64,000 nucleotides of DNA from an uncultured virus (IMG/VR IMGVR_UViG_3300006990_000018) (IMGVR_UViG_3300006990_000018), one strand, 5' to 3'; numbered from the stretch's first letter, positions 5,701 through 49,561 are shown. Notes: generated by a model from the letters alone, not told the origin. A program made the numbers and translations.

Positions 5701-8700
5701 CGGCAAGGCGCAAGGTGGGCGTGCCCTCTTTGAAGCCGAGGCGAAAACGATTGACGGAGACACATACTACACCCAAAATTGGACCTACAACGACTCGTGG
5801 TGGAGCGGCTCTCGCATCTCGTATTGGTATCAAGAAAGCGGTCAGCGGGCTATCCCTATCACCTATGGTTCCTACCCCGAAGTGCGTATGTCGCACGCCA
5901 ACCTGCCCCGTTGCCTGCCCCACCTGTTCACGAGCGGAGTGGTGCATGGCTATCCACTCCTCCAACCGATTGACCGCATCAGCACACCTGCTCCCATCCG
6001 AGATGTGGCGGGGACCGACGCTTGGGCGCAGGAGCGCTACGACTTCCTCCGCCGAACGCGATTCGTCCCCACGACGATTGGCTTCGCCGACTTCGGTGCT
6101 GGTGCAAATCCGCATCAAGAAATGGGCTGGTCTGGATGGTCGTTCCCACAGGGGCTATACGACCCAATAGGGTTCGGGAACAACACGGTGTTCTTCTCTG
6201 ACGCTCCCGAATCACTTGCAGTCGCAGATGGAGTCGCCATCACTCCGTCGTCGCAGGGCCAATGGGCGGGCTTCGCCTCGTCCATCGCATTCGGGCACAT
6301 GACGGGACCGATGACTGCGTTCAGCCACCACGGACCGCTCCACTACGGCATCATGAGCGCCGACCACCCATTCAAACCCGACCGAGTATGGAAGCAGGTT
6401 CACGGCGGCGTAGGCTATGACATTCCCCTTCACCTACTGGCCCCAGCCGAGGTCCATGTGCGCGCCCGTGCGGGTGGGCGGAACTCGCTTGACCTTGAAA
6501 TGGAGACTCCGTTCCACCGAACGGACACCTTGCACCTTGACGGAGCGGCCCTGTTCAATGTCGGGTTTGACCAAGGGGGCAAGGCGACGCCCGACGCCAG
6601 CCGAACTCAATTGGGACAATATCACCTGCGGACCAACCTTTGGACCGACGATTCTCGCAAGGCAGGGGCGCTCACAGGCGGCCTTTTGACCACGGATAGG
6701 GTGAGGGGGCCTACGGTCTCGGGAAACGGCTTAGAGGCGTTTTGGAATGACCATCCGACCGAACACTTCCACGCTGGTGCAATCCCCATCATGCCGAGCA
6801 CCGACTACGATTTGAACACGATTGAGAACGAGCGCTACGCCCCAGCAATTCTCGGTCGCATCCATGAAATCAGCAACCTTGACTATGTAGCCGTCGCCGA
6901 GCAATTGCAGTCGTCCGTTGATGTTCATGTCTCTCAAGGGGCACGGCCGATGTGGGACTCGGGTTCAATTGTGAGCGGGCGTGGAGTCGGAGAGCGAGAC
7001 ACCACCACAGCGTCCAGCGTCTCTCAAGTTCGGAGTGAAATGAACGGCGAGGACATTCCAACTGCTTCCGAGTCGGCTACAAGCCACGATAACGGGATGG
7101 GCAAGGGTCAGCGAGTGGTTCGCACACCCGAGGGCACCTTGCACATTTTCCCGATTGAACGGTCGGGGCAAGCATCATCCAGCAACCTCCCACGCTTTGT
7201 TCACTACACGAAACCGTTGCACGGCGACCTGTTTTGGAACAGGAAAGCACTCAAAGCCAACCCATCCAACGCCACCTATGACGGCAAGGATGAGGTGGGG
7301 TATTTCCTCGGAGCAAGTGATGTGCTTCGGTCGGCTACATTCGCAAGCGACAGCGACGGCACGATTCACGCCGTCGTGGAAGTGCAACTCTCAACCGCCT
7401 CACCAAACCACAGCCTGTATTATCACTACGCAAAGCGGAAATTGGTTTCCTATAACCCACATCCAATCTATGAGTGGGATTGGTCCGAGCACACACCCGT
7501 TTTGATTGGAACCTTGAGCCACGACCTACGCCAACCATCGCTCGTGTGCGACTCCAATGACCGCCTGCACTTGGTCGCCCGCTATGTCTCGGACTCCTAT
7601 TCCCACATCGTCTATGGGAGCAAATTGCCGAGCGAGGACGAGTTCCCAGCCATGCCCGCCTTCGTCCAAGACCCCGCTGAGTGGGACACCAACATTTGGA
7701 GCAAGGTGAACAAGTCGCTGGTCGCTGGCTTTGTTGTGGCGAGCGACAACTCTGACGCAGGCACATCCCATGGGGTGATTGACTGCGATAACCCAAAGGT
7801 GTGTTTGCTTGGGGACGATACCCCGTTCGTGTTTTTCAGAGCAGGTGCGGCGGCTGAATCGGCAACGCTGGGAGACCGAGCCAACGACGCCATCTATGTG
7901 AACATTGGACGCAACGATACGGGTGCCTACGACCCAGCGGGTCGGTATCGGTTTAACGGCAACTTGGCCATGCACGCCATTGGCGTCCACGGAACGGCTC
8001 AATACCCCAGCACCAAGGTCATTTACTACGACGCCATCATTGACGAGCGAGACCGAGCCTTCATCACGGTAGTCAAAGACGATAATGGCCGACGGGTCTT
8101 GATGAACTCATTTGACGCATCGCTCCCCTTGACGGACCAATACACCACGGCCAAGGGCCTCGGCTTAACCAAGGCCCTGTTCATCCCCAAGAACACCACC
8201 GTCCGCCCGAACTATCAGCACATCACGACGACGACCAACGGCAAGGGCGAGGTTCACATGATTCTTGGATTCACCCTTAGCGGCGATGTGGAGCAGGCGA
8301 CTGCGATATACCGAGATGGAATCACCGAGGCCACCATAGCACCCCTTCAATGGGCTACAACGCCAGCCAGCGACTCCACGGCTACACCACCCGCCGCCAT
8401 GTCCGACGGAGGCGGCTACGAGGCTCCTGTGAGCGCCAGCGACTATGAGTGGCCCGACGGGGGAACCCACCTCACCCCAACCACGGGAACCATCACCCAC
8501 TTCATGGAGGTGTGGATGCCGACCTTTGAGTTCAGCCAAGATGTGTCGGACCCAGACGAAGTGCTCCGCTCAATCAACATTCGCTGGCTCTCCGTGCCCT
8601 CGTTGAACTACGACGCAACCAACGGCTGGTTCCCTGTTGGGTCAGCACAGTCGCTCAACGGACACGAGGACTTCACCCACACAAACCCACAATTGAGGTA

Positions 8701-8881
8701 TCAGAGGTATTGGGGCTTTGATGCTGGTGAACTTGACCTGCGATGGGCGACCAACGAACAATCGTGGATGAACACCCCACACGGCGGTTCTCGGGTTTAT
8801 TTCCCCTACGCTGGCGGTTCATTCACGACCGTTGGCGAGGGTGAAATTGAAGGCGACGGCATCGCTGGTTGGCCTATTTGA
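2765..8881 (+). CDS. Giant (2038 aa) putative virion tail/receptor-binding protein
   Basis: Long ORF rich in G/T/S/P; propeller-like DSDGTIHAV and DSNDRLHLV motifs; function inferred. Confidence 0.6.
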   Translation: MAVPATRADLIPPVGAGAGLPLTLVWADDLTDAGGAGTEGYALFDSGLWKPQSETTLGVPIAVSGASVSYAHGTLLDFASMNFLGLTAETEAPRLNFGNGRLEHGQAMQDAGFGRHSASNMRSFAPAATATITEVGRHVEHPMRSHTSARPANHTWFQPRHNAMANAAMPSYDLQIGSLVDADVGSIGTVEAFTHRVATDLPSNGVGATYGDSHNSAYLSSLWSCTLNNMSLASGLQPAEFKSTDPKAFSSHWGTNLQVQQEVMVSGTPLSAPDAQNTAPSHGLIDGDRLTLPAETTQTIMVSDIHTETGTTAQEELTFPLGAAYLGNHVVADTCGLIGYEGVFSATAFASVSRNANAPFVVAPPAHPLIPDTAWNEDGAALYAGLNIQVHSGLPLRRNGMSWNTASEPLFVYGSDGTAVMPMTEGMSTTGARSSFKGASFTLNANQTRFHTGRVVHHTQGGNINDLSVPTLNSQTTGGSAAPSATTTSKGPSRFILGDSYTSGAWTATVNLSQEFLKDRIPTKVKVVPTLLGYDEVSVAAGASHPSSDPITFKRPIVDYHVLVSLSPKDRINATVNLTNSRIGNPTARNFPQASRLTANMDLEDEGCEIFHAVFRVAPTTLERVFFDPLSPSAATWGVNTSDSEMPNTVMPRHDADFGGWGLHQLTPFRPIANTSWAQVPLLCAAIESGGYYQRGGVSHLWDADTYGKELFVSADAIDASHFEDSVWGNGQVWADGTGALANPRGSELLVFKYNPSLDAFHVNNHTTPTTTPLYELATTHTTSEQSSAITVSDKFKQYEGWSIHDWVFPQIELMRYLGREDKAAAMHPRHSANTGGDPLFHPTLHCSSLRFMDDGRMAMAAVQRDHIGSEEEYPASDINYPFNPESGSGSGCPAGYYRSGDTCVPISSGDNPNTESEHLDPITGEVIDGPPPTPDNGNGEGHVGGGDNFNLSPSWSRIVANTSGRSLVLMWSEAKALNGKAQGGRALFEAEAKTIDGDTYYTQNWTYNDSWWSGSRISYWYQESGQRAIPITYGSYPEVRMSHANLPRCLPHLFTSGVVHGYPLLQPIDRISTPAPIRDVAGTDAWAQERYDFLRRTRFVPTTIGFADFGAGANPHQEMGWSGWSFPQGLYDPIGFGNNTVFFSDAPESLAVADGVAITPSSQGQWAGFASSIAFGHMTGPMTAFSHHGPLHYGIMSADHPFKPDRVWKQVHGGVGYDIPLHLLAPAEVHVRARAGGRNSLDLEMETPFHRTDTLHLDGAALFNVGFDQGGKATPDASRTQLGQYHLRTNLWTDDSRKAGALTGGLLTTDRVRGPTVSGNGLEAFWNDHPTEHFHAGAIPIMPSTDYDLNTIENERYAPAILGRIHEISNLDYVAVAEQLQSSVDVHVSQGARPMWDSGSIVSGRGVGERDTTTASSVSQVRSEMNGEDIPTASESATSHDNGMGKGQRVVRTPEGTLHIFPIERSGQASSSNLPRFVHYTKPLHGDLFWNRKALKANPSNATYDGKDEVGYFLGASDVLRSATFASDSDGTIHAVVEVQLSTASPNHSLYYHYAKRKLVSYNPHPIYEWDWSEHTPVLIGTLSHDLRQPSLVCDSNDRLHLVARYVSDSYSHIVYGSKLPSEDEFPAMPAFVQDPAEWDTNIWSKVNKSLVAGFVVASDNSDAGTSHGVIDCDNPKVCLLGDDTPFVFFRAGAAAESATLGDRANDAIYVNIGRNDTGAYDPAGRYRFNGNLAMHAIGVHGTAQYPSTKVIYYDAIIDERDRAFITVVKDDNGRRVLMNSFDASLPLTDQYTTAKGLGLTKALFIPKNTTVRPNYQHITTTTNGKGEVHMILGFTLSGDVEQATAIYRDGITEATIAPLQWATTPASDSTATPPAAMSDGGGYEAPVSASDYEWPDGGTHLTPTTGTITHFMEVWMPTFEFSQDVSDPDEVLRSINIRWLSVPSLNYDATNGWFPVGSAQSLNGHEDFTHTNPQLRYQRYWGFDAGELDLRWATNEQSWMNTPHGGSRVYFPYAGGSFTTVGEGEIEGDGIAGWPI

Positions 8882-14909: not shown

Positions 14910-16904
14910 ATGGCCCCCGAAATTATCGTCAGTCAATCCACCGAGTCGTCGTCCGACTTCCTCTTTGAAGCCGCCGACCTACCCGTGAAATTGACCTTCC
15001 TGTCGTCCACAAAGGGACGCATGGAGTTCAGCGCTGAGGTGGATGGCGAACCCAAGGGCAAGGTCAATGTCCTGTCCCAGCACTCCATCGCTCGGCTCGC
15101 CAAGTCGTCGCTCAAGGACGAGGGACTCAAGGACGAGTTCACCGCCACGATGCTCAAGGCTGGCGTGATTCTCCGAGAAGGCACCTATGTCGTCGCCACC
15201 ATGGAGGACAAAACAACCGCCGAAGTCATGTCGCTTGAGGGCGAGTCATCCACCTACGGGGACATTGAGCCAGCGACCATCGGACGATTCCTCGGCGAGC
15301 GCTTCCTGTTGGACCGTATCAACGAGATTCTCCACGAGAGTCGTGAGACCCCGTTCGTCGGAGACGATGCTAACCTGCTCCTCACCTTCCTCGTGTTCTT
15401 GTCCTGCAAGACGGACAACCCGCTCAACCTTGAGATGATTGGGCAGTCATCCAGCGGCAAGACCTACATGACCTTGACCGCTCGCAACGGCTTCCCCAAG
15501 TCCATGATTATGGTTCTCGCTGGGGCCTCCAAGGAGGCGCTGAAATACGACTACGACGAGGTGGATGAGGACGGAAACTTCATCGTCAATGTGGACGGTC
15601 GTTGCATCGTCGTCTTGGAAAAGGACGAGTCATTCGCATTCATTCGCAAGATGAAGCCCATCATGTCGGGAGACGACACGGAACTCGTTTGGAAAACTCC
15701 CATCAAGAATGAGTTATCGGGGGAAATAGAGACGAGGGACTTCATCATCAGAGGTCGTCCGTCGTTCATCACGCTCACCACTCGCAACCCCAGCGAGCAG
15801 GAGCAAATCACACGGCAACTCATCATGACACCCGACACGACGGTGGAGAAGGTGAATGAAGTGGTCAAGAACGCCTTGCTGGCCAAGGCACGACCCGAGA
15901 CCTTCAAGGTGCACCCCGACCTCAAAATGCTTCAAGCGTCCATGCTTTCACTCAACCGCTATCGGGTCCGCAACATTTTCGCCCCGCTCATGGTGGACTT
16001 CTTCCCCGCTCGCAACGCTCAGCACCAGCGAGACATCGGCAAGGTGCTCTCCATCATTGACGCCGTGGCTCTGCTCCACCAGCACCAGCGACCTGTGCAA
16101 AAGGACGAGCACGGGGACGAATACCTGCTGGCCTCCGTGGAGGATAATGTGATAGGGCTTATGCTCTGCGACCTCGTTCTCCGAGCCAGCCTGTCGGGGG
16201 TGCCCGACGACACTTGGACCGTATATCAGCAAATGACCGCCATGGAGGAAGCCAAGCGCCCGCTCACCGAGGACAACATTCTCCAATGGCTCGGCATCCA
16301 CGCCTTCACCATCAGCAAGAACGCCCTCAAGGAGAAGCACCTCCCAACGCTTGAGGACGCTGGCCTCATTGAGGTCGCTCGTCGTGGCGGAGGGCGCGGT
16401 GGCGGCAAGAAGGCATACCGCCTCGTCAAATCTCGCATCGGTCTCATGGACGACTACGCCCTGTCCCCCCTGTTCGTGGAAGCGGCGGCGGCGAACCTAC
16501 ACGACCTCGCCAACGAATACAACGATGTTTTGACCAGCGCCGAACCTGCCGCTCACCGATTCCCATTGAAGGCGAAGGACCAATCCCTTCTCCGCTCCAT
16601 CGGATGCCCCAGCAAGGAAGCGTCCGAGGTTTGGCGGTCTTTGTTCCTCCCATCCTACCTACGCCCTGCTGGACGCTCAACGCTCCTGTGGGACATCGTA
16701 GGAAAGGACTCCAAACACCGAGACGGATTGTTCGGTGGGGACGCTTGGTTCAACGCTACGAGCGACGCAACAGCGGCATTGAGCAAGCGCCGAGAAGTCA
16801 AGGAAGCCATCAAGACTGCCTCGCAGTCCACCACTTTGGATAACGAGGACCTATGGGAAGCGATGATGGATGCACACCTGTCGGGACTTGAGGATGATGA
16901 TTGA
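14910..16904 (+). CDS. MCM-like AAA+ ATPase, putative replicative helicase, with a wHTH-like C-terminal region
   Basis: Walker A GQSSSGKT, IVVLEKDE Walker B-like motif, ITLTT sensor, ITRQ arginine finger; adjacent to the SSB. Confidence 0.7.
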   Translation: MAPEIIVSQSTESSSDFLFEAADLPVKLTFLSSTKGRMEFSAEVDGEPKGKVNVLSQHSIARLAKSSLKDEGLKDEFTATMLKAGVILREGTYVVATMEDKTTAEVMSLEGESSTYGDIEPATIGRFLGERFLLDRINEILHESRETPFVGDDANLLLTFLVFLSCKTDNPLNLEMIGQSSSGKTYMTLTARNGFPKSMIMVLAGASKEALKYDYDEVDEDGNFIVNVDGRCIVVLEKDESFAFIRKMKPIMSGDDTELVWKTPIKNELSGEIETRDFIIRGRPSFITLTTRNPSEQEQITRQLIMTPDTTVEKVNEVVKNALLAKARPETFKVHPDLKMLQASMLSLNRYRVRNIFAPLMVDFFPARNAQHQRDIGKVLSIIDAVALLHQHQRPVQKDEHGDEYLLASVEDNVIGLMLCDLVLRASLSGVPDDTWTVYQQMTAMEEAKRPLTEDNILQWLGIHAFTISKNALKEKHLPTLEDAGLIEVARRGGGRGGGKKAYRLVKSRIGLMDDYALSPLFVEAAAANLHDLANEYNDVLTSAEPAAHRFPLKAKDQSLLRSIGCPSKEASEVWRSLFLPSYLRPAGRSTLLWDIVGKDSKHRDGLFGGDAWFNATSDATAALSKRREVKEAIKTASQSTTLDNEDLWEAMMDAHLSGLEDDD

Positions 16905-37575: not shown

Positions 37576-39414
37576 TTGCCCGAGACTCCCGAGGAACTCC
37601 GCTCCCTTTTGCGAGGGGCTGGCCTACCCGTCTTTGAGACTGAATCCTACAAGGAACTCCGCTATCGTGCCCAGCGTGCTGGCTTAGTGTCCTCCACGAC
37701 CTCCACAGGGACCGCCACGGGCCTCCAAGGCCCTCGGGGTCCCCAAGGCCCAGCAGGACAAAGGGGGGCCACAGGAGCGGCAGGAGCGGCAGGAACCGCT
37801 GGTGCTACGGGCGCCACGGGCGCGACAGGTGCCGCAGGCCCAGCAGGAGCGGACGGCTCTGATGGAGCGGACGGTGCGACAGGACCCACAGGACCCGCAG
37901 GAGCCACAGGAGCCGCTGGTGCTGACGGAGCAGATGGCTCCGATGGTGCTACGGGACCCACAGGACCCACGGGACCCGCAGGGGCAGATGGCTCTGACGG
38001 TGCTGATGGAGCGCAAGGTCCAGTCGGTCCGATAGGACCTCAAGGTCCCGCTGGCTCAGATGGCTCAGATGGCTCCGATGGTGCAGATGGTGCCGCAGGC
38101 CCAGCAGGACCCCAAGGCCCAGCAGGAAATGACGGTGCTGATGGTGCAGATGGCTCTGACGGAGCCACAGGTCCCGCTGGTCCCATTGGACCCATTGGAC
38201 CCCAAGGCCCTGCTGGTGCGGACGGTGCGGACGGTGCTGATGGTTCTGACGGTGCGGCTGGCCCTGCTGGACCCGCTGGACCCGCTGGCCCTGCTGGTGC
38301 TGATGGCTCAGACGGAGCAGACGGAACAGACGGGGCGGCTGGACCTGCTGGCCCTGCTGGACCCATAGGTCCACAAGGACCCGCTGGTGCAGATGGGAAC
38401 ACGATTGACCTTCCATCGCTCCCAGCAGACACACAACTTGCCGACGCCGACTTAATTCTCATTGACGCAGGGGCTAATGGGACCAATAAGAAAACCACAT
38501 TCACCGAGGTCAAGGAGTGGATTCGGGGCGAAGGTGTTCGGGTTGGTAGGGATGGCGGAGTCAATCAGTTGAGAATCCGAGACTCAAGGGATGACGGGGA
38601 ACTGACGCCCGATGACTTCCTCAATCAGATGGTCCACTTTGACTTCACCGACGACATGGCTGGTTCACCAAACAGTTGGGATGCAGTCTTGACAATGAAG
38701 GGTTGGACTGATTCATACCGTGTGTTTCAAATCTATTCTTCGGCTTCAAGTGAGGGGACAGACCAAACAAGAAAGGACACCGAGCCGCTGTTTTTCCGTA
38801 GCGGAGAGGATTCGGGTTGGGGTGCTACACGGCAGATTATGACCTTCGCTGGGACAACCCCGAACGCTGACGGTGCGGCTAATCAAATCCTACAAACCGA
38901 CGGTGCTGGGACGCTCTCGTGGGCGGACCTACCTACTAACCCTGCACTCTCACAATACGAACGATATGAACTTGATTCGTCCATTCCAGCGGCCAACGGA
39001 ACAACCGTGCTTTTGACATTTGGTGTGGGTTCGGGTCCTCACCTCAAATCCACCTACAACCCAGCAATAACTGCGTGGGCTGTCAATCCAGCAAACACTC
39101 ACATTGACATACTGGCGAATGGGTTGTATCAATTCACCTTTCAAGCCTTCATGGCCTCATTGGGAACTTCTCAAGCCGATTATCGGATAGCAATTTCAAC
39201 GAGTCCGTCGCTCACGGGAGACTTGCTTATGGTCCGCAATAGGACATCCTATGTGGACCGCCACACATCAGTCGGCACGGCCACGGTGTATTTGACGGCG
39301 GGGGCCACGGTTTATTTCAGCGTTTTCAAGGGTGGAGGCAACGCCTACGAACTCGGTGGGACATTGGCTGGCCCCGAACTCCGAACATTCATTGACATGA
39401 GGAGGGTTCAATGA
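37576..39414 (+). CDS. Collagen-like tail fibre with a C1q/TNF-like C-terminal domain
   Basis: Long G-X-Y repeat, [11 protein letters not shown] motif, [15 protein letters not shown] jelly-roll pattern. Confidence 0.85.
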
Positions 39415-41358: not shown

Positions 41359-41471
41359 GATTGAACCGATACCTGCGGAACTTGCCGTTGATTTAGCCGA
41401 TACTTGCGACACTCGGCATGGATTTAGCCGATACTTGCGAGGTCGGAGGTTGATTTAGCCGATACCTTCGG
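41359..41471. repeat. Four ~20-bp direct repeats at exact 31-bp spacing
   Basis: GATT(T/G)A(G/A)CCGATAC(T/C)T(G/T)CG at 41359, 41390, 41421 and 41452. Confidence 0.9.
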
Positions 41472-41947
41472 CAGGACGCGTTGTTTTGGTCTCGTGTTGG
41501 CTTCGCCCGCTCGGTCGGGCTGACGCTCAAGGGGTTATAAACCTTTAGGTGTAGCGTTCTCTTTAGGTCAAAGGAGAATGTAGGGGAGGAAAGATTATAT
41601 ACCCCCTGCGGCGGGGGTCGGCGTGGCGGGTGCTTTGGCCGCTTGCGCTTCATCTGCCCCATGTTGGGACCTAAAGCATTTGACCCTATAAAGGTTTGGG
41701 TGTGGCGTTCTCCCGTCGGCGAAACGGCCCCGCCGCCCGTAGGTTGATGGGCTGGGGGTATATAGTCTTTCCGTTCTGATAGTCTCCCGAGGTCGGACCC
41801 TATCATGAACGGGCCGCCCCTCTGGCCTTCGGAGGGCCTCGGAGGACCCCCGAAAAAGCCGAAAATGCAGGCCGACCTATATCCCCCTATAAACCTATCG
41901 CAATTCTGCGCCGAAACCTTTAAGGTGGGAGGCGGTATAGGACAACC

Positions 41948-42469
41948 ATGGCGCAACAAGCGAACCAAACCCCAGCCCGAACTGAAACCACCCTCGTTGT
42001 GGAGGAAACCACCTCCCTCGTTGGCCTTCAAGCCATCGCCAAGGCGATGGATAAGGTCCACACCACCAACAACAAGGCAACCGTCCAAGCCCTTGGCGAG
42101 GACTCCGCCACCCCCTTCATGCTCACGGGCGTTTTGACCGTCGGCGAAGAGACCGCCCTCATTGACGAGAGCGGCATGATTGAAGTCGGCGCCTCCTTCC
42201 AGCGTGCTCAGACCTCAGCGTTCAAGACCACGAACGCCATCCGCGACGCTCTCGCCGTCATGGGCATGCACGCCCCCAAAATGGCCGAAGCCATCATGGC
42301 TTCCATGCTCGCTTCCAAAGACGGTGGAGACTCCGCCGCCGCACTTGAGGCCAACGGCTTCAACATTTCCGAAGCCGCCCTTGACCGAGCCAACGCCTTC
42401 ATGGCCTCCCTCGCCACCAAGAGCACCCGCACCGTTTCCGCCGCTGTCAAGGTCAGCCTTGACGACTGA
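41948..42469 (+). CDS. Hypothetical Ala/Thr-rich protein
   Basis: CCGAAACC-TTTAAGGT promoter; strong codon bias. Confidence 0.75.
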   Translation: MAQQANQTPARTETTLVVEETTSLVGLQAIAKAMDKVHTTNNKATVQALGEDSATPFMLTGVLTVGEETALIDESGMIEVGASFQRAQTSAFKTTNAIRDALAVMGMHAPKMAEAIMASMLASKDGGDSAAALEANGFNISEAALDRANAFMASLATKSTRTVSAAVKVSLDD

Positions 42470-42860
42470 GACCGACAGACACGCCCAGACACGCCGCCCC
42501 TGCCCCTTCGGGGGTGGGGACCCTGCGAGGTCCCTCCCAGCGGGAGCAAGGCCCACAGGGACGCCCACAGGGCCACGCATGACCCCCAGCGGGAGCGAGG
42601 CCCCCAAGGAGCGCCCGAGTGCACGCAAGGTCCGCCCGAAAGGCCCGCCGCCCATATCCGATGGGCTGACGGCCTATAAAGGTTTTGGACCTACACTTTC
42701 CTTTTCTCAAGAGAACGCCACGCCGAAAGGTTTATAGGGTGTCAGCGCCCGTGTTCAAGTGGAGAGACGACTTCCAACGGGGCGCGTTGGAGACGGCATC
42801 TCCCCGAGTGCCCTCGCCCCTGCCCCGACCCCCACGGGTCCTCGCATCAATCTAAGGGAA

Positions 42861-42927
42861 CGGCTGACACCCTATAAAGGTTTCGTTCACCGATAGGTTT
42901 AATAGGGGGGACCCCCTACGATAAAAC
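42861..42927. promoter_or_regulatory. Back-to-back divergent promoter pair (type example)
   Basis: GCTGACACCCTATAAAGGTTTCG (minus-strand TATA) abuts CCGATAGGTTTAATAGGGG (plus-strand TATA). Confidence 0.7.
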
Positions 42928-43269
42928 ATGCGAGACCTAACCCGCCTAACCCAAGCCGAGACCCGCCGAATACCTGCCCTATACGCTACCGACGGCGTGC
43001 CCATGAGCGAGAAGGTCGCTCAAGCCCGCTACTTCTTCGGCGGCCGCTCTGCCTTCTATGTCCTTGAGCGAGACCCCAGCACGGGCGAGATGTTCGGCTT
43101 TTGGATTTCCGAGCACGGCAACGACATGAACGAACTCACCTACGCCGACGCTGAGACCATGCGGTGTGTGCGAGCCGAGAAGGACCGCTTCTTCTCCCCG
43201 AAAAACCTCATTGAGGCCGTCAAGAGCCGAGAGGGTGCGAACGCCGTCCCATCATGGTGGAGTGAGTGA
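42928..43269 (+). CDS. DUF2958-like protein
   Basis: IPALYATD..K....FF....FYV.E.D...EMFGF....ELTY pattern. Confidence 0.55.
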   Translation: MRDLTRLTQAETRRIPALYATDGVPMSEKVAQARYFFGGRSAFYVLERDPSTGEMFGFWISEHGNDMNELTYADAETMRCVRAEKDRFFSPKNLIEAVKSREGANAVPSWWSE

Positions 43270-43272
43270 AAC

Positions 43273-43503
43273 ATGACCTACCGCCCATCATTCCGAGCAC
43301 AGACCTACGCCAAGGGCCGCCTTGAACTCGGCTTCAAAATGCACTACGACGAATCCTACACCGTTTCCATGATGGTTGAGGTCGCACTTGAAGAGGACTT
43401 CTATTTCGGCGTTCGTGGCTCACCAGACACCGCCGACGAGGATGCCGTCAAGGCATGGGCTACCGACCTGTATCGTGGCCGCCTCAACCCTAACAAGTAT
43501 TGA
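43273..43503 (+). CDS. Hypothetical protein
   Basis: Operonic ATG. Confidence 0.65.
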   Translation: MTYRPSFRAQTYAKGRLELGFKMHYDESYTVSMMVEVALEEDFYFGVRGSPDTADEDAVKAWATDLYRGRLNPNKY

Positions 43504-43731
43504 GTGGGGGGCATCTTCTATACCCCGCCCATGACGGGCGGGGCTACGCTGAGCAATAGCCCCAGCGGGAGCGAGGATTTCAATTCCTGAGATTTTCAGT
43601 CGCCCCGAATCCGTCAAAATTGACAGACCCAGCGGGGCGCGTTGGCCCGTTGCCTATAACCGATGGGCTGACAGCCTATAAAGGTTTCTAACACCGAAAG
43701 TTTTAATATAGGGGACCTCCTACGATTGAAC

Positions 43732-44115
43732 ATGACGGACACCCCGACACCCGCCCACCGCTTTGCCCTCGGACAGACCTACACCACGCTCAACGCCACA
43801 TGGCCTCTGAGAGACTACGATAGGAAGTTCAACACCACGGTTGCGGGTCATGCCCGCATCATGAGCATGGAAGTGTTCACGACCTCCACAGGCCGTGAAA
43901 TCCACCGTGCTCATTTCTCCATCACCTACACCCGAGCCGACGGCTCCACGAGTGCTGGCGGCCTCTTCTCCCGTGAAATTGAGGTCGTGCCCTTCCGCAA
44001 GGCTGAAGCGCTCATCCTTGACACCATCCACGACGGTTGGTGGTGGTCCGCCGACATGACGGCTGAGGAGTCCCCTCGGGTCGCTGAGTTCACGGATTGG
44101 CTCGCCGAGCAATAG
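43732..44115 (+). CDS. Hypothetical protein
   Basis: Family promoter. Confidence 0.72.
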   Translation: MTDTPTPAHRFALGQTYTTLNATWPLRDYDRKFNTTVAGHARIMSMEVFTTSTGREIHRAHFSITYTRADGSTSAGGLFSREIEVVPFRKAEALILDTIHDGWWWSADMTAEESPRVAEFTDWLAEQ

Positions 44116-44320
44116 GCCGCCCGTCTTTGTAGCAACGGCCCCGAGCGGGGCGCGTTAATGTTGGGGGCTTTTCGCCCGTTTGTCGGGTCCAGCCACCGCA
44201 GTTCAAACCCCGTGGCCACCGTTCAAACCCCACGCCAACAGGACAAACCGCCCGAAAGCCTGCAACATTGTTTGGCCTCGCCGTGCCCCGTTTGGTTATA
44301 ATGGAAAATAATTCAGAGGA

Positions 44321-44435
44321 GACCCCCTTCCCCATTTCACACACACACCTTGTCATGTGTGTGTGTCATAGTGCATTCTATTCATTTAATTTAATTGAAA
44401 ATAAGATAATATAGATAAGAAAAGACTATATACTC
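44321..44435. other. Candidate origin: (CA)n/(TG)n inverted repeat plus an AT-rich tract
   Basis: Homologous to the reverse complement of 14811-14864; followed by a strongly AT-rich stretch. Confidence 0.45.
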
Positions 44436-44531
44436 CCATCTCATGGTCTATCGGTATGCGGAGCCTACAAGCGGGCGGGACCGATACCTTTAAGGTGGGA
44501 GACCCCGTGGCTTAGAACAGAGGGAACAAAC

Positions 44532-44951
44532 ATGACCTGCCTAACCCGAACCGAAAGCCAAGCCTACAACACGACCCGCGCCAAGAAGCACATTCGCGCC
44601 GTGCACTATCACGCCGCATTCTATGACGCTCCCAGTCAATATGTTGGCGACGACGGCATAAGCCAAGACTCCGCCAACATTCTTCTTCGCCACGGCGACG
44701 CCAGCCTCCACATCACCGCCGACGGCCGAGCCTACCTCTCCGCCACCAAGACGGGTTCACGGAACTACGGCGGGAACTCCTGCTTGCGAGACGGCGACCG
44801 CAAGGGCGACGACGGCCGCTATGTGGTCATTCACGAGGTCCCACGCTACAACCGCACCGCTGGCCCCGTGGACGCCCACGCCGCACTCATGGCCGTCATT
44901 GACTCCATGGTCATGAAGGGACACCGCTTCTCCATCAGCAAGATGTTTTGA
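44532..44951 (+). CDS. Hypothetical protein
   Basis: Promoter plus short leader. Confidence 0.7.
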   Translation: MTCLTRTESQAYNTTRAKKHIRAVHYHAAFYDAPSQYVGDDGISQDSANILLRHGDASLHITADGRAYLSATKTGSRNYGGNSCLRDGDRKGDDGRYVVIHEVPRYNRTAGPVDAHAALMAVIDSMVMKGHRFSISKMF

Positions 44952-44979
44952 GGCCGACGGCCGCACCGATTCCAGCACC

Positions 44980-45022
44980 TTTGAGCGAAAGTCTTTAATA
45001 GGGGATTCCCCTACGATAGACC
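44980..45022 (+). promoter_or_regulatory. Family promoter with no downstream ATG
   Basis: TTTGAGCGAAAGTC-TTTAATAGGGG...CTACGATAGA. Confidence 0.8.
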
Positions 45023-45385
45023 AGAGCGCACCTGTCCCCTCAGCGGGGGTGGGGGTGCCGACCCGAGATTGAGAACCTCGCCGTCCCGCACAGGGATAAG
45101 CGGCGAGCGGCCAACCGTCGCTTCTGGTGGCGGGGACTCCGAGAGTTCTAAGGTGCAGGGAGAAGGCTTAGCGGCCAAACCCTCAACCTCGGCAGGGAAG
45201 CCACGGCGGCCCTGTCGGCAAAGCCTCGCTTCAACGATGAGGGCGAGAGACGGCACCAATCCCGCACGGGAACCAATGGCCAAAACAGGAACCTCGGGGG
45301 ACTACTCCTCCCCAGAGAGCCACGCCCAATAGGCAGGCGTGGACCCGTGCCTACTGCGGAGGAAGGGGGTCGGCGCTGGCGCTCA
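45023..45385 (+). ncRNA. Putative large structured ncRNA of about 360 nt
   Basis: 5'/3' closing helices, many hairpins, two possible pseudoknots, own promoter, no leaderless ORF. Confidence 0.68.
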
Positions 45386-45568
45386 CATTGAGCCGATACT
45401 TTAGCCGATACCCGTTGTTTGGCGCGTTGTTTGTGGATGCGGAGTCTCCCCCCGTGCCCGCTCCTCTCGGGGTCCGCCCCCGCTCCTCGCAATATGAACA
45501 GGGAGCCGACAGCCTATAAAGGTTTGCTTGACCGATACCTTTAAGGGGGCAAGCCCCGTGGAGCAAAC

Positions 45569-45808
45569 ATGGAGAACCAAACCTTCACCCAACACGCCCG
45601 CCGAGAAGCCACCAGCACCCTCGTTCATTACTTGGACCAAGGAGAGACCAACAAGGCCCTTCTAATTGGAATCACGGCCGCTCGCCTCTTTGAGTGCTAC
45701 CTTCAAGACACGGCGGAGCCTTGCCCCTACGCATTCATTGACGCCCGCCGCTGGGCCATGGCCGAAGTGTCAGAAGCCACCGCCAAGCCTTGGGCCGTCC
45801 TTCAATGA
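45569..45808 (+). CDS. Hypothetical protein
   Basis: Promoter-linked ATG. Confidence 0.68.
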   Translation: MENQTFTQHARREATSTLVHYLDQGETNKALLIGITAARLFECYLQDTAEPCPYAFIDARRWAMAEVSEATAKPWAVLQ

Positions 45809-45847
45809 GTCGGCAGGCTCAAAGAGGTGGCCTGCACGGGTCGCCTC

Positions 45848-46177
45848 ATGATGCCCGAGCAACCCAAGCGCCGACAGTCCCGACGAGAGCGGCGAGAGTC
45901 CAAGCGAGCGACCCGACGCCTTCGGCGGTTCCGTGCTGGCGAGGTTCTGCGACTCCGAAAGGATGCCGTTCGCTTCACGCTCTCTGAGGCCATCGTCATG
46001 GCCTCCCTGCGCCGTGAGGCCGCCGCCATCGCCGAACCTACCGACGAGACGGGGAAGCCTGCACAGCGCACCGTTCAACGCTTCCATGCGTGGGCGGGCC
46101 AACTGAGGGCGGTTGATTCGTCTCGGTGGCGGTGGTTCGTGGACGGCGACAGAATCGCCGCATTTGAGAACCTTTGA
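45848..46177 (+). CDS. Arg-rich hypothetical protein
   Basis: Open frame after GAGGTG; start uncertain. Confidence 0.5.
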   Translation: MMPEQPKRRQSRRERRESKRATRRLRRFRAGEVLRLRKDAVRFTLSEAIVMASLRREAAAIAEPTDETGKPAQRTVQRFHAWAGQLRAVDSSRWRWFVDGDRIAAFENL

Positions 46178-46214
46178 CCGAACTCTTTATGTAGGGGCAC
46201 TTTCTGGCCGTAGC

Positions 46215-46403
46215 ATGAACCAAGTCCCCTACCAGTCCAGCGAGGCGAGCGCCGACATTATCAACGCCTACGCCAGCCAATACCGAACATATGCCCGTCA
46301 AGGTCCGAGCCGCTTGGTCCGAGCCATGAAGTTCATTGGACCCATCGCCGTTTTGGTGTTCCCGCCGCTTACTCTCATCGCTTTGATTATCGTTCACCGC
46401 TGA
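46215..46403 (+). CDS. Small membrane protein
   Basis: Own promoter; C-terminal hydrophobic helix. Confidence 0.6.
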   Translation: MNQVPYQSSEASADIINAYASQYRTYARQGPSRLVRAMKFIGPIAVLVFPPLTLIALIIVHR

Positions 46404-46451
46404 GCGGTTCGCCCGATACATCAGAGCGCCGCCGTTGATTTTGCCGAGGGC

Positions 46452-46500
46452 AAAACCGACGGACTGAGGGGCCGCCGCCCTATGAGTCGTCGTCGTCCAC
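46452..46500 (-). ncRNA. Putative small RNA, family copy A
   Basis: TATA..TGTTCAA-GTGGACGACGACGAC...GGCGGCCCCTCAGTC..TTTT. Confidence 0.5.
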
Positions 46501-46577
46501 TTGAACACGGGCGACGAAAGCACATAAAGGTTTTGTTCACCGATACCTTTAAGGTGGGACGCCTCGTGGTTTGAAAC

Positions 46578-46793
46578 ATGGGAGACACCCGAACACCAAA
46601 GAACGCCCGATGGGCCACAGGCCAGCAAAAAGTCCACCTCGCACACCCCTTAACGGGTTGTTGCCTTGGATGCAAAAAGAAGGTCGCCGCATGGCCAAAC
46701 GCTCAAGATAAGACCGTTGAAGAAGTCAAGAACTCGGACTTTGGCCTCTGTTCCTTCGTCAGCGACTTTTGGCTTGACCGTTTCACCAAATGA
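46578..46793 (+). CDS. Small Cys/His protein
   Basis: Promoter-linked ATG. Confidence 0.62.
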   Translation: MGDTRTPKNARWATGQQKVHLAHPLTGCCLGCKKKVAAWPNAQDKTVEEVKNSDFGLCSFVSDFWLDRFTK

Positions 46794-46948
46794 AGCCGCC
46801 CGTCCGCCCAGAAACTCCGCCCCTCGGGGCGCGCTGGGTCTCGCAGGCCGATTTTGGCCGATAGGCTCGCAGTCATGCGTTTAGGCCCGAACGGGTCCAG
46901 AACCTTTGAGCGAACCTTTGATATAGGGGAGCCTCCCGTATTCACATC

Positions 46949-47257
46949 ATGCGAAACAACACACACGCCCGAGACCGAATGATGAGCCGCCTCACCGAGA
47001 GCGAGCGTTCAGAGGTCAAAGCCACCGTGGCCGCCGTCCGAGAGGCTGGCCTCATCACCCCCACCGAGGACCTCGCCATTTACGCCGCTCGCCTCTCCCG
47101 CTCCCGTGCGGCTGAGTGCGGTTCAAACGGTCAAAATGTCGTGGTCATGGTCCGCCGTGGAAAAGTCGCCACCGTCATGCTCCGCCGAGACAACCAACCA
47201 CCCACCCGCTCCGCTCTCCGAGTGGACCGAGTGCTTCGCATGAACGGGGGCGTTTGA
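46949..47257 (+). CDS. Hypothetical protein
   Basis: Promoter-linked ATG; HARDRMMSR..VVVMVRRGKVATVML is reminiscent of small RNase-like folds. Confidence 0.68.
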   Translation: MRNNTHARDRMMSRLTESERSEVKATVAAVREAGLITPTEDLAIYAARLSRSRAAECGSNGQNVVVMVRRGKVATVMLRRDNQPPTRSALRVDRVLRMNGGV

Positions 47258-47258
47258 G

Positions 47259-47393
47259 ATGGCCAAGGCCCAAGGACGACCCAACAAGAAGCACGCCAAC
47301 CGCAAGGCTGGCCACCACTACAAGCGCACGCAGGGCGGCCCACGCCGCACGGGCGTTCATCGCCTTGAGAACTGCCGCCTTCACGGCCGCTGA
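47259..47393 (+). CDS. 44-aa highly basic peptide (not in the ORF track)
   Basis: MAKAQGRPNKKHANRKAGHHYKRTQGGPRRTGVHRLENCRLHGR. Confidence 0.5.
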   Translation: MAKAQGRPNKKHANRKAGHHYKRTQGGPRRTGVHRLENCRLHGR

Positions 47394-47434
47394 GGTCTGG
47401 ACGGGGCGCTCTCGGGCGCGAGCCGCCGACAGCG

Positions 47435-47483
47435 AAAAACGCACGACTGAGGGGCCGCCGACCCCCCGCTCATCATCATCCAC
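47435..47483 (-). ncRNA. Putative small RNA, family copy B
   Basis: TTTATA..TGTTCAA-GTGGATGATGATGAG...GGCGGCCCCTCAGTCGTGCGTTTTT. Confidence 0.5.
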
Positions 47484-47559
47484 TTGAACATAAGGCTGAC
47501 AGTCTATAAAGGTTTTGATGACCGATAGTTTTATAGTGGGAAGCCTCGTGGATTGAATC

Positions 47560-47841
47560 ATGGGAACACAAACCATGACCGAGCAAGCAAGCGGATTCTC
47601 CACGGAGTCCTTCACCGACCAAGGCCAACACGGAGCCGTTAATATCGTGGTCCGCCGTGGTGCATACGGTGGCGGGAACTCCGTCGGCGTGCACATCAGC
47701 AACGGCAAAGGCGCCAGCGTTTCCGCTCACATGAACCGAGCCGAAGCCATCGCCATGGCTCAAGCCATCATAGCCGCCACGACCGACCAAGCGACCGAGG
47801 ACGCCTACACCTTCCCCCACCGCTCCGAGGTGAACGAATGA
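47560..47841 (+). CDS. Hypothetical protein
   Basis: Promoter-linked ATG. Confidence 0.68.
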   Translation: MGTQTMTEQASGFSTESFTDQGQHGAVNIVVRRGAYGGGNSVGVHISNGKGASVSAHMNRAEAIAMAQAIIAATTDQATEDAYTFPHRSEVNE

Positions 47842-48124
47842 GCGCCGCCGCCGCTTGGAACTACCTCGCCACCGCTGACACGGGCGAGATAACCCACATC
47901 TGCGTTGTCTTGGCCTTCGTCGTGTTCCCCTTCGTTCAAGGCGTCTGGGAGTCCGTGTCGTCCCTTGTGGAGCGTGTGCGCTGATGCTGGCGGACATTGT
48001 GCTCATTCTCTCCTTCCTGCTCATGTGGGCGGCTGTGTGCGCTGAGGACGGCGACCTCTGAACGGGTTCACGCCAGAACCTTTGAGCGAATCCTTTATGT
48101 AGGGGATGCCTCCCATCTTGTATT

Positions 48125-48637
48125 ATGAGCAACCTCGCCTTCCACCGCACCACCGAAAACGGAGCCGCCCAAATCCTCGCCCACGGCATCAAGTCCATGG
48201 CTTCTCAAGGCTGGGACCTTCCCGACTACAAAGAGGACGCTGAGGGCTACGAGAACGCCCGCCAATTCATCGCCAGCGCTGGCTTCAAGTTCCAAATCCG
48301 CCCGCTCTCGTGGATTAAAATGTATGAGGCCGCTGAACCCAACTGCTGGATGATGCGCCGAGACTTCCGAGAAGTCCAGAGCCGCTTGAACTCCGTCTTT
48401 GTCCGCACGGGCGGCGTTGAGACCTGCTGGGCGCCCGAGGGATGCACCATCGCTATTGACCTTGACAAAGTGGACGCTGAGCGCACCACGGACGGCTATG
48501 GCCAATCTGACAACGGGACAGGCGTTGAGGACTTGCAGGTGTTCGGAGACATCCCAGCCAGCGCCGTCCTTGGTATCGTGTGCGATGACTGGATGACCGC
48601 CCACGGCTTCACCGTTGAGAGCGGCGGCCTTGAGTGA
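48125..48637 (+). CDS. Possible ADP-ribosyltransferase-fold protein
   Basis: FHRTT...A..I...GI at the N-terminus, SVF strand, GDIPASAV near the C-terminus. Confidence 0.45.
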   Translation: MSNLAFHRTTENGAAQILAHGIKSMASQGWDLPDYKEDAEGYENARQFIASAGFKFQIRPLSWIKMYEAAEPNCWMMRRDFREVQSRLNSVFVRTGGVETCWAPEGCTIAIDLDKVDAERTTDGYGQSDNGTGVEDLQVFGDIPASAVLGIVCDDWMTAHGFTVESGGLE

Positions 48638-48701
48638 GCCGTTCAGCGTGCTCGGCGACGCCCTCGGGCGAGCGCTGGCGCTGGCGCTGTCTCTGATGCG
48701 G

Positions 48702-48751
48702 AAAAACGCATGACTGCGAGGCGGTGGCCCCTTCGGGTCATCATCATCCAC
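48702..48751 (-). ncRNA. Putative small RNA, family copy C
   Basis: TTTATA..TGTTCAA-GTGGATGATGATGAC...CAGTCATGCGTTTTT. Confidence 0.5.
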
Positions 48752-48847
48752 TTGAACATAAGGCTGACAGCCTATAAATGTTTCGTGCCTATACTTTCAG
48801 AACCTTTGAGCGAATCCTTTATGTAGGGGTGGCTTCCATGAGGAACC

Positions 48848-49561
48848 ATGGCGAACACCACCCTAACCCTAACCTTCCCTAAGCGAGTCGGCGGCGCCGC
48901 CGTCCGTGCTGATGTGGCCGACCTCATCCACCGAGTCATTGACTCCGTGGCCGCTGACCTTGACTTGAGCGAAAACACCCTTGAAGTTCACTTCACGAAC
49001 GACCGCAACACCCACCGACCCGCACACCTTGCGACCTCCATGAAGGTCCTTCAAGACGAGCGCCAAGGACGCTATGTGAACATTGAGGCCATTAGCACCC
49101 TCGGCGTTGGCTTTGATGGCTCCCTTCCTCACATGAAGGTCAATCTCCAAGGCGTCAAGGCCGCAGACTATGACGGCTTGACACCCTACACGGCGAACCA
49201 TGTTATTCATGAGACGCTCCACTACCTTCAAACCGCCCTCGGCGTCATGTCCTCAACGCAGACCGTCAAGGGCTACGGACGAAGCGTGAGCCGCCGCACA
49301 ACGACCACATGGAACCATGGCCCAGCCTTCGCCCTCAACCACGCCATCCGCACGGCCGCAGGTCGCAACATGATGAACGAGCCTCAAGAGAGCGACGAGA
49401 GCACCACCTACGACCGCCGAAGCATCACCTACGATGAAATGCCGTGGGAGCACCAAGCATGGCGAGGAGCCTACATTCTCGGCCGTGCGCTTGGCTTCGC
49501 ACCCTGCGAGGAAACCCGAGCGACCTACCGACGATTCATGAAGAAGGCGGGTCGCCGCTGA
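48848..49561 (+). CDS. Zincin-like metallopeptidase
   Basis: HETLHYLQ (HExxH) and downstream MPWEHQA. Confidence 0.75.
   Translation: MANTTLTLTFPKRVGGAAVRADVADLIHRVIDSVAADLDLSENTLEVHFTNDRNTHRPAHLATSMKVLQDERQGRYVNIEAISTLGVGFDGSLPHMKVNLQGVKAADYDGLTPYTANHVIHETLHYLQTALGVMSSTQTVKGYGRSVSRRTTTTWNHGPAFALNHAIRTAAGRNMMNEPQESDESTTYDRRSITYDEMPWEHQAWRGAYILGRALGFAPCEETRATYRRFMKKAGRR

Follow-up and report, generated by a model that had tools for sequence, protein, structure and literature searches.

A 64-kb stretch of DNA from an uncultured virus (IMG/VR IMGVR_UViG_3300006990_000018; the whole stretch, 64,000 nucleotides, is called the window) carries four copies of an intergenic repeat unit. The units are members of a real, virus-specific multicopy family that is widespread among relatives of the virus. 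Each unit joins a TATA-like box to an invariant 11-mer, GTTCAAGTGGA, which is one base apart from the core of the euryarchaeal origin recognition box (ORB), GTTCCAGTGGA (10 of 11 positions match; PMC1868953, PMC4153887). We tentatively favor reading the unit as part of an intergenic promoter cassette that incorporates an ORB-like site for binding an initiator. The original prediction, which took the units for small RNAs or micro-open reading frames (micro-ORFs) fired from reverse promoters, missed this likeness.

The exact 12-mer TGTTCAAGTGGA is found at 42752(+), 46507(-), 47490(-), and 48758(-), four matches compared with a mean of 0.00 in 100 dinucleotide-preserving shuffles of the window, none of which contains any. 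The predicted GTG triplets are all present (minus strand, 46500, 47483, and 48751; plus strand, 42759), as are the motifs described around them. In the three minus copies, TTTATR starts 27 nt ahead of GTG. Unit A (46452–46539, minus strand) consists of a BRE-like (B recognition element-like) AAAACC, a TTTATG box (46528–46523), the core GTTCAAGTGGA (46506–46496; GTG at 46500), four GAC triplets (46497–46486), a GGG/GC hairpin (46480–46469), CAGTC, and TTTT (46455–46452). Unit B (47435–47521, minus strand) has CAAAACC and a TTTATA box (47510–47505), the palindrome-like GACTGTCAGCC, the core at 47489–47479, three GAT triplets plus GA, the G-string GGGGGG (47467–47462), CTCAGTCGTGCG, and TTTTT (47439–47435). 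Unit C (48702–48789, minus strand) has CGAAACA and a TTTATA box (48778–48773), the palindrome GGCTGTCAGCC, the core at 48757–48747, three GAT triplets plus GA, CGAAGGGG with a G-string at 48731–48728, the mini-hairpin CGCAGTCATGCG, and TTTTT (48706–48702). The triplets of each minus copy are thus followed by a short GC-rich hairpin, and CNCAGTCNNNCGNTTTT occurs with 0 mismatches on the minus strand at 46452–46468, 47435–47451, and 48702–48718. The T4–5 tract begins 44–45 nt past the G of GTG. The diverged unit (42711–42800, plus strand) faces the other three. It contains the promoter-like GAGAACGCCACGCCGAAAGG, TTTATA (42732–42737), the core (42753–42763), GAGAGACGAC, and GGGG (42779–42782).

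Each minus unit adjoins a leaderless forward promoter. The promoter beside unit A, ACCGATACC TTTAAGG ... AACATG (46539–46580, plus strand), drives the gene at 46578–46793, and equivalent promoters adjoin unit B (47521–47562) and unit C (48798–48850). The 17-nt motif that ends unit C, CTCGCAGTCATGCGTTT, recurs in the gene sense at 46866–46884 on the plus strand, right after the gene at 46578–46793, which suggests that the T-tract motif is a terminator module usable on either strand.

A motif search in related viral and marine metagenome contigs bears out the prediction of a multicopy family and brings it to at least 37 distinct copies. Scanning viral contigs with a 21-letter pattern gives six loci, four in relatives and two chance coding matches. 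Copies are present in four IMG/VR records (G001, G002, G003, and G004), three of which match a looser promoter-plus-core pattern (3, 1, and 2 sites); G004 does not. The metagenome scan gives at least 125 loci, mostly chance matches inside genes, and about 20 true members, recognised by their TATA context, among the matches listed. In cellular genomes, only two family members are found among the 121 listed matches to an 18-mer pattern, both on the viral contig G002. This contig (55,503 bases; L189) carries archaeal-virus units and archaeal-type promoters and is filed in a species-genome collection inside a bacterial metagenome-assembled genome, probably by a binning error. The analysed set comprises 37 units with full flanks after removal of identical copies; because many of them are mutually orthologous, the counts below are not independent and enrichment figures overstate independence. 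A literature search of main texts yields no description of the repeat unit, and 10-mer matches are to unrelated primers only.

Read on its own strand, a unit consists of a purine-rich CGAAA/CAAAA, a TATA core, a palindrome-like CTGWCAGCC, four variable bases, and the invariant GTTCAAGTGGA. The TATA core comes in two flavours at the same distance: roughly half of the copies have CCTTTATAG and roughly half GACTATATAC. A single copy has an altered 11-mer, GCTCAAGTGGA. Downstream of the 11-mer, 32 units carry (GAY)3–4 (12 all-GAC, 20 all-GAT, none mixed) and five carry GAGAGACGAC or GAGGGAGTC. The best-conserved columns are the 11-mer and the GA of each triplet, above the TATA box, and conservation fades past about 20 nt. 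Such a pattern, with a variable downstream part, fits a protein site better than an RNA. The downstream part falls into three classes. In 16 of the 37 units, including the three minus copies of the window, a GC-rich segment is followed by C(T/G)CAGT(C/A)N3-5CG(G)TTT(TT). In at least nine, by eye, the T-tract motif is inverted (AAAAACGNNNGACTGCGAG), with the T-run on the gene-sense strand, and the remaining 12 have it in neither orientation. Most units are oriented against the neighbouring genes (in the window, L051, and L062) and some with them (window unit 42753, L026, L063, and L135). The units are bundled with a perfect palindrome (GGCTGWCAGCC) and with promoter repeats of 60–100% identity, and the flanking genes vary among genomes.

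The resemblance to ORBs extends beyond the core. The euryarchaeal ORB consensus is GTTCCAGTGGAAAC-AAA----GGGGG in the accessible text of PMC1868953, and Table 2 of PMC4153887 gives GTTCCAGTGGAAATGG-AGGGGTA for Methanomassiliicoccales and CTTCCAGTGGAAACGAAAGGGGT for Archaea. The individual ORBs listed there differ from one another in the left half, where the mismatch of the unit core also falls. The gapped consensus puts the G-string at position 23. In 20 of the 37 viral units, counted from the first G, GGGG begins at 23–29 nt; for random positions in 41–50 kb the figure is 5.3%. GA(A) often precedes it, as in CGAAGGGG of unit C. The core is a quasi-dyad, so the opposite, gene-sense strand of the unit also reads as an ORB, TCCACTTGAAC-ATAAGGCTG, followed by GG[GC] within 2–7 nt in 27 of 37 units (background 24%). 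A mini-ORB has a core close to GTTCCAGTGGAAA; against the canonical 13-mer, the units match at 10–11 of 13 positions. Since Orc1 recognises the shape of its DNA and makes very few contacts to bases (PMC3089459), variant sites are credible.

Cellular loci provide a second comparison. Of 30 orc1 loci scanned, several have canonical ORBs, for example GTTCCAGTGGAAATAAAGGGGTG. In two genomes, G016 and G115, the variant CCAGTTGAAAT(T/A)AAGGC lies just upstream of a leaderless orc1, inverted with respect to a canonical ORB across an AT-rich gap, and the viral sense strand matches the G016 variant at 16 of 19 positions. The ORB pairs lie at about 2400–2710 of L308 (G115) and about 2740–3100 of L307 (G016), with the canonical member reading ..TTCCAAAGGAAATAGAGGGGTC, and by their sequence the two loci look like cellular origins.

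In the window, the opposed units bracket the strongest AT-rich stretch (44322–44475; up to 78% AT in 80 nt), which lies between the plus unit at 42753 and the first minus unit at 46506, 1.6–2 kb from them. Only two stretches in the window reach at least 62% AT over 80 nt. The stretch contains an inverted repeat, CACACACACA/TGTGTGTGTG, at about 44341–44368, and is a candidate duplex-unwinding element by its composition. Likewise, the strongest AT-rich stretch of G003 (15711–15868) lies between units at 13354 and 17648. In G002, a more distant and AT-richer relative with 40 such stretches, the strongest (8567–8746) abuts the unit at 8701 and lies between those at 7734(+) and 10794(-). Three viral sequences, drawn from two lineages, thus have copies on both sides of their strongest AT-rich stretch. 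ORB clusters outside the unwinding site have been described (PMC1904270), and the accessible text of PMC4010727 proposes initiator titration by ORB clusters for Haloarcula. This region, the only strongly AT-rich one of the window (44190–44480), also contains two direct GTTCAAACCCC repeats at about 44201–44232 and, on the plus strand, a box of the second flavour, GAAAAGACTATATACTCCCA, without the 11-mer.

The sequence family, its anatomy, its ORB likeness, and its arrangement are shown; from them we infer that a protein binds, which protein it is, that the unit is transcribed, and that it may serve in replication, as follows. The 11-mer GTTCAAGTGGA, the purine-rich spacer of GAY triplets, and the G-string would together form a variant ORB, a putative docking site for an Orc1/Cdc6-type initiator. 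That the 11-mer and the G-string bind an Orc1/Cdc6-like or winged-helix protein is possible, and we advance it with reserve. The initiator would probably be the host's, because no viral orc1/cdc6 was found. The host Orc1/Cdc6 is the obvious candidate because magrovirus-type replisomes are described without an initiator: in the accessible text of PMC5434244, the magrovirus replisome is listed as near-complete and Orc1/Cdc6 has 0 occurrences. The ORB-like site occupies the predicted start point of a BRE/TATA-like box oriented against the genes, and lies immediately beside the next cassette's forward promoter. Binding of the initiator may mark or control the viral origin or early region, or may titrate the initiator. 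The backward TATA box may fire a short transcript across the site that ends at the T-tract; this transcript would be secondary, serving in activation, priming, or insulation, and would not be a trans-acting small RNA. A bolder and unlikely version holds that a virus with its own archaeal replisome and no initiator hijacks or titrates the host Orc1/Cdc6 through ORB mimics placed on small outward-facing promoters. A short G-rich transcript fired across the site would open or prime the DNA, yielding a multi-site, transcription-activated origin zone distributed across the early gene cassettes, and the modules would double as shuffling joints of these cassettes.

Several observations weigh against an initiator-binding site. 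In Pyrococcus ORB oligonucleotides, TTCC and GAA are perfectly conserved (PMC1904270), whereas the viral units have TTCA and GAY or GAG instead. The quasi-dyad core leaves the orientation of the putative ORB ambiguous. A scan of the window for the canonical 13-mer with up to three mismatches gives 11 sites where 17.6 are expected, no enrichment; the units are ORB-like only as a family-invariant block and not by genome scan. The ORB likeness was noticed after several other motif families had been considered, and a look-elsewhere discount applies. An ORB leaves the fixed-distance TATA box and the T-tract motif unexplained. Copies lie about 0.5–4 kb apart at gene boundaries (about 1–3.7 kb in the window, with genes between). 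On a 3.3-kb TARA contig, five units occupy successive intergenic gaps, four in the same direction and the last one divergent, an arrangement more reminiscent of a gene-boundary element than of an origin of the classical kind.

The search for initiator genes and host origins adds to these objections. Cellular origins usually have orc1/cdc6 nearby. The Cdc6/Orc1 domain is absent by Pfam from the 71 ORF translations of the window, which is an incomplete genome and in which divergent proteins may escape detection. A Cdc6_C search of the four viral records (G001–G004, also incomplete genomes) finds none. Pfam, PHROGs, and PDB sequence searches with the early-region proteins and three large unknown proteins return no regulator or initiator. 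On the cellular side, Cdc6_C is present in 149 of the 151 Thermoplasmatota genomes searched. In 401 Thermoplasmatota genomes, the exact 11-mer does not exceed its reversed control in frequency, and neither does the 12-mer GTTCAAGTGGAA in 151. This 12-mer has 60 matches in the 151 genomes, of which only one, in G108, lies within 3 kb of a Cdc6_C match (about 0.09 expected by chance), a weak signal. It falls in the intergenic space that separates orc1 from the gene after it, at a local AT maximum. Two apparent host clusters of the motif were rejected as coding repeats.

As an alternative, the units could be autonomous backward promoters of the intergenic-repeat type, each firing a short non-coding RNA that starts in or just after GTTCAAGTGGA. 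In the three minus copies of the window the RNA would end at the T-tract after 45–50 nt. Antisense in cis to the upstream early mRNA at its 3' end, it would insulate cassettes or control this mRNA in the manner of lambda OOP. This is the small-RNA system of the original prediction stripped of its decoy and guide roles. The spacing agrees with it: the two unrelated TATA flavours keep the same distance to the 11-mer, with the purine-rich CGAAA/CAAAA on the upstream (BRE) side, and the first T of the box lies 27 nt ahead of GTG, equivalent to the 28–33 nt ahead of ATG in the virus's own leaderless promoters. In 16 of the 37 units, a T4–7 motif oriented to stop such a transcript follows about 45 nt downstream; the motif also ends a plus-strand gene (46866–46884), and the module occurs in both orientations relative to neighbouring genes, as would an autonomous unit. 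The repeats of HF2, which share a BRE, a TATA box, and a conserved start block, are reporter-verified promoters according to the accessible text of PMC8707807. On this evidence a backward-facing promoter giving a short RNA is plausible, and the backward TATA box is, on balance, somewhat likely to be an active promoter.

However, the backward boxes of units A, B, and C score poorly, ranking 179th, 282nd, and 853rd of 127,956 positions despite a slack of ±4 nt, whereas ten early forward promoters rank 11th to 104th; the weight matrix was built from 18 hand-picked forward promoters outside 41–50 kb. Their purine-rich A-run is a T-run on the gene-sense strand and could equally be a sense terminator. 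The fixed-distance box and the T-tract of the predicted RNA hold, but neither a conserved fold nor an Rfam family accompanies them. RNAalifold on 15 type-I units returns 4 pairs, 0 of them compensatory or covarying, at -1.75 kcal/mol, and the minimum-energy folds of these units lie within about 1.5 standard deviations of mononucleotide shuffles (-18.3 against -15.6 ± 2.9 for unit A; -13.8 against -13.9 ± 2.7 for unit C). The predicted pairing of the 5' GAY repeats with the 3' GUCRU is seen when units A, B, and C and two orthologues are folded to minimum energy; the other units folded lack it. An Rfam search of 41–50 kb at E ≤ 5 finds no family, with two unrelated sub-threshold matches only (SNORA71 and an internal ribosome entry site), and no ORF lies downstream. 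Moreover, the inverted T-tract of at least nine units means that no short RNA would be made there, and the (GAY)n run and the G-string are left without explanation. Taken together, autonomous RNA-producing promoters are a somewhat unlikely account of the family. Other RNA identities were also considered and rejected. An archaeal C/D box small RNA, with a C box RUGAUGA toward the 5' end and a D box CUGA toward the 3' end, is not supported: AUGAUGA occurs in GAT-type units only, and the 3' part is CAGUC, not the CUGA of a D box. A tRNA T-loop mimic, a CRISPR-repeat mimic, and anti-Shine-Dalgarno pairing give no convincing match by eye.

The unit could also act purely at the DNA level as a part of a mobile intergenic cassette: an operator or upstream site for a viral regulator unrelated to Orc1, or a roadblock or terminator insulating neighbouring cassettes. 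It would at the same time serve as a homology patch for the shuffling of cassettes between related viruses. The unit always lies between a gene end and the next forward promoter, bundled with the palindrome and promoter repeats while the flanking genes differ, and the five successive gaps of the TARA contig conform to such a cassette. The module is closed by T-runs on the gene-sense strand, and the conserved blocks between TATA box and start in the forward promoter families suggest several sequence-specific factors. Nevertheless, Pfam (E ≤ 0.1) shows no DNA-binding domain among 18 early-region proteins, nor does PHROGs among 19. The variable orientation to the neighbouring promoter disfavours an upstream site that depends on geometry, and the G-string and a core only one base off that of the ORB would be left as coincidence. 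We regard this account as distinctly unlikely.

The coding version of the original prediction, a leaderless minigene whose GUG-start RNA yields MDDD(D)(X) and engages ribosomes or tRNA-Asp, with the lambda bar minigenes for comparison, is very improbable, even though GTG is positioned as the leaderless ATGs of forward genes are (±3 nt). Its reading of the window copies is correct: copy A encodes MDDDDS-stop, and B and C have no stop ahead of the T-tract. Across the family, a stop falls within six codons in 15 of the 32 GAY-type units, giving 4–6 codons (MDDD-stop, MDDDDS-stop, MDDDDL-stop) and using all three stop codons. The other 17 run for 10–218 codons or off the locus, and orthologues differ in length (218, 135, 95, and 83 codons for unit C; 103, counted by hand in the window, and 33 for unit B). 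L138 carries TGG at the position occupied by TAG in its near-twins L054 and L111. All 37 units start with GTG and none with ATG, the triplets are all GAC or all GAT, which is not expected of synonymous drift, and the five GAG-type units would encode MERR... or MEGV.... The frequent early stops are at most a guard against junk translation. The long minus-strand ORFs that open at GTG (218 aa in C, 103 aa in B) were likewise rejected as genes, since orthologues are cut to 135, 95, and 83 (C) and to 33 (B).

Returning to the ORB-like site in a promoter cassette, we compare the unit with known systems. Archaeal ORBs and mini-ORBs are multicopy and share with it 10 of 11 core positions and a purine-rich spacer plus G-string at comparable distance; opposed viral units also lie to either side of an AT-rich stretch, at 1.6–2 kb in the window, and cellular orc1 loci have ORBs beside leaderless promoters. 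The viral units differ in having TTCA/GAY for TTCC/GAA, a triplet-repeat spacer, and a TATA box at a fixed 22 nt. They are spread about 0.5–4 kb apart at gene boundaries, without an adjacent orc1/cdc6, whereas archaeal ORBs form clusters within a few hundred bases. They are also viral, and initiator binding to them is a prediction. The PeSL cassettes of T4-type phages are repeated promoter-plus-hairpin modules that flank small ORFan genes in the plastic early region. As with those cassettes, the same viral module adjoins different genes in related genomes; unlike it, they have bacterial sigma-70 promoters oriented with the genes and no block resembling an initiator site. Lambda OOP RNA is a demonstrated short transcript from a single-copy locus opposite the early genes, overlapping an mRNA end and closed by a terminator. 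Our units are multicopy, share a 5' block, have the T-tract inverted in part of the family, and have a transcript that is only predicted, whereas lambda OOP and phiH Tant are single-copy with demonstrated transcripts. PhiH Tant is a short viral cis-antisense RNA in the accessible text of PMC8707807. The same text describes the class I and II intergenic repeats of HF2, which resemble our units as early-region modules of an archaeal tailed virus with BRE, TATA box, and conserved start block, kept in relatives. The HF2 repeats point with the genes and drive mRNAs, and the reverse activity of class I is low or negligible (PMC8707807, accessible text). Their sequences are unrelated to those of our units, which mostly face against genes and have no ORF downstream. 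In sum of sequence features, the unit resembles both an ORB and an HF2-type promoter repeat and is a clean member of neither. It is not a clean ORB because it has no adjacent orc1 and its core motifs are altered, and not a clean HF2-type promoter because its weight-matrix match is weak and its promoter activity only predicted.

Tailed viruses of marine archaea that belong to the magrovirus kind are abundant, uncultured, and noted for carrying nearly a whole replisome, and how they start replication and time their early genes is the question at stake. A conserved, virus-specific element one base off the cellular initiator docking site offers a sequence tag for early or origin regions in metagenomic viral contigs. 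If the unit is only a promoter repeat, it is of an ordinary kind and still useful for annotation; the window has at least three promoter families with a fixed 30-nt TATA-to-ATG distance, and backward members.

The window has a G+C content of 55–60%, and nearly all of its long ORFs are on the plus strand. We infer that the source is an uncultured tailed virus of marine archaea whose genes resemble a magrovirus set, which makes its host a putative one as well; the comparison rests on the accessible text of PMC5434244, in which the words promoter, repeat, and intergenic have zero occurrences. On the structural side, the window encodes a tape-measure-like tail protein, a PKD-bearing giant tail protein, and a 612-aa protein with collagen triple-helix repeats (37576–39414), probably a tail fibre. 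The archaeal-type replication genes include a family-B DNA polymerase (PolB), an RFC small-subunit homologue (PDB 2chq, E 9e-54), a prim-pol, an XPD-like helicase, a PD-(D/E)XK nuclease, and an XPF/ERCC4-HhH nuclease. A MoxR/VWA pair is also encoded, and a 2038-aa ORF (2765–8881) has no match in Pfam or PHROG. PolB matches haloarchaeal tailed viruses, with 24% identity only. The annotated phage collection has zero DNA matches to the window in near and distant modes, and a tRNA/tmRNA search of the window finds none. Eleven runs from nine studies, a possible source sample excluded, contain 0.69–0.96 of sampled words from 45400–49000, and all are labelled marine metagenome; no RNA run is among the listed runs that contain the sequence.

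Forward promoters of the archaeal leaderless type are common in the window. BRE/TATA boxes precede 25 ORFs (21 plus-strand), with the first T 28–33 nt ahead of ATG, the pattern of leaderless archaeal mRNAs; all 25 starts came from a search for ATG. At least three forward promoter families are conserved from BRE to start (for example at 126, 2473, 11046, 22486, 31873, 49723, and 52216), namely GAGCGAYR..TTAATATAGG with GGGGAACCCCCTACGRTTAAAC-ATG, ACCGATACCTTTAAGGTGGGA..CGTGG..AAC-ATG, and CAGAACCTTTGAGCGAATCCTTTATGTAGGGG. In all of them, ATG lies about 30 nt past the TATA box, which suggests temporal classes read by different factors. A bacterial-type scan, uninformative here, gives 0 sigma-70 promoters and 10 intrinsic-terminator-like sites (9.2 expected) in the window.

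Backward-facing TATA-plus-palindrome modules without the 11-mer also occur. One, AAACCTTTATAGGCYGTCAGCC, lies at 42663–42685 on the minus strand, and more end at 41697, 42883, 43687, and 45525; the module ending at 43687 is followed by a GC hairpin and then by TTTT about 35 nt beyond the predicted start. Two promoter-like modules, at 42726–42763 (plus strand) and 42863–42885 (minus strand), face each other 116 nt apart and form a 23-nt inverted repeat (91% complementary); their transcripts would overlap if both fire. Four 31-nt repeats in tandem (TTTAGCCGATAC...GTTGATT) occupy 41361–41486, just to the right of the final gene on the structural side, and two overlapping related copies lie at 45388–45432. 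CCGATAC is common to the 31-nt repeats and to the BRE region of early forward promoters, and the repeats may be iterons or a regulator array. Finally, a tandem 49-nt GC-rich repeat (CCCAGCGGGAGCRAGGCCC..) lies at 42536–42610 in the gap after the gene at 41948–42469, and related hairpins (CCAGCGGGGCGCGTTGG) are found at 42774, 43629, and 46821.

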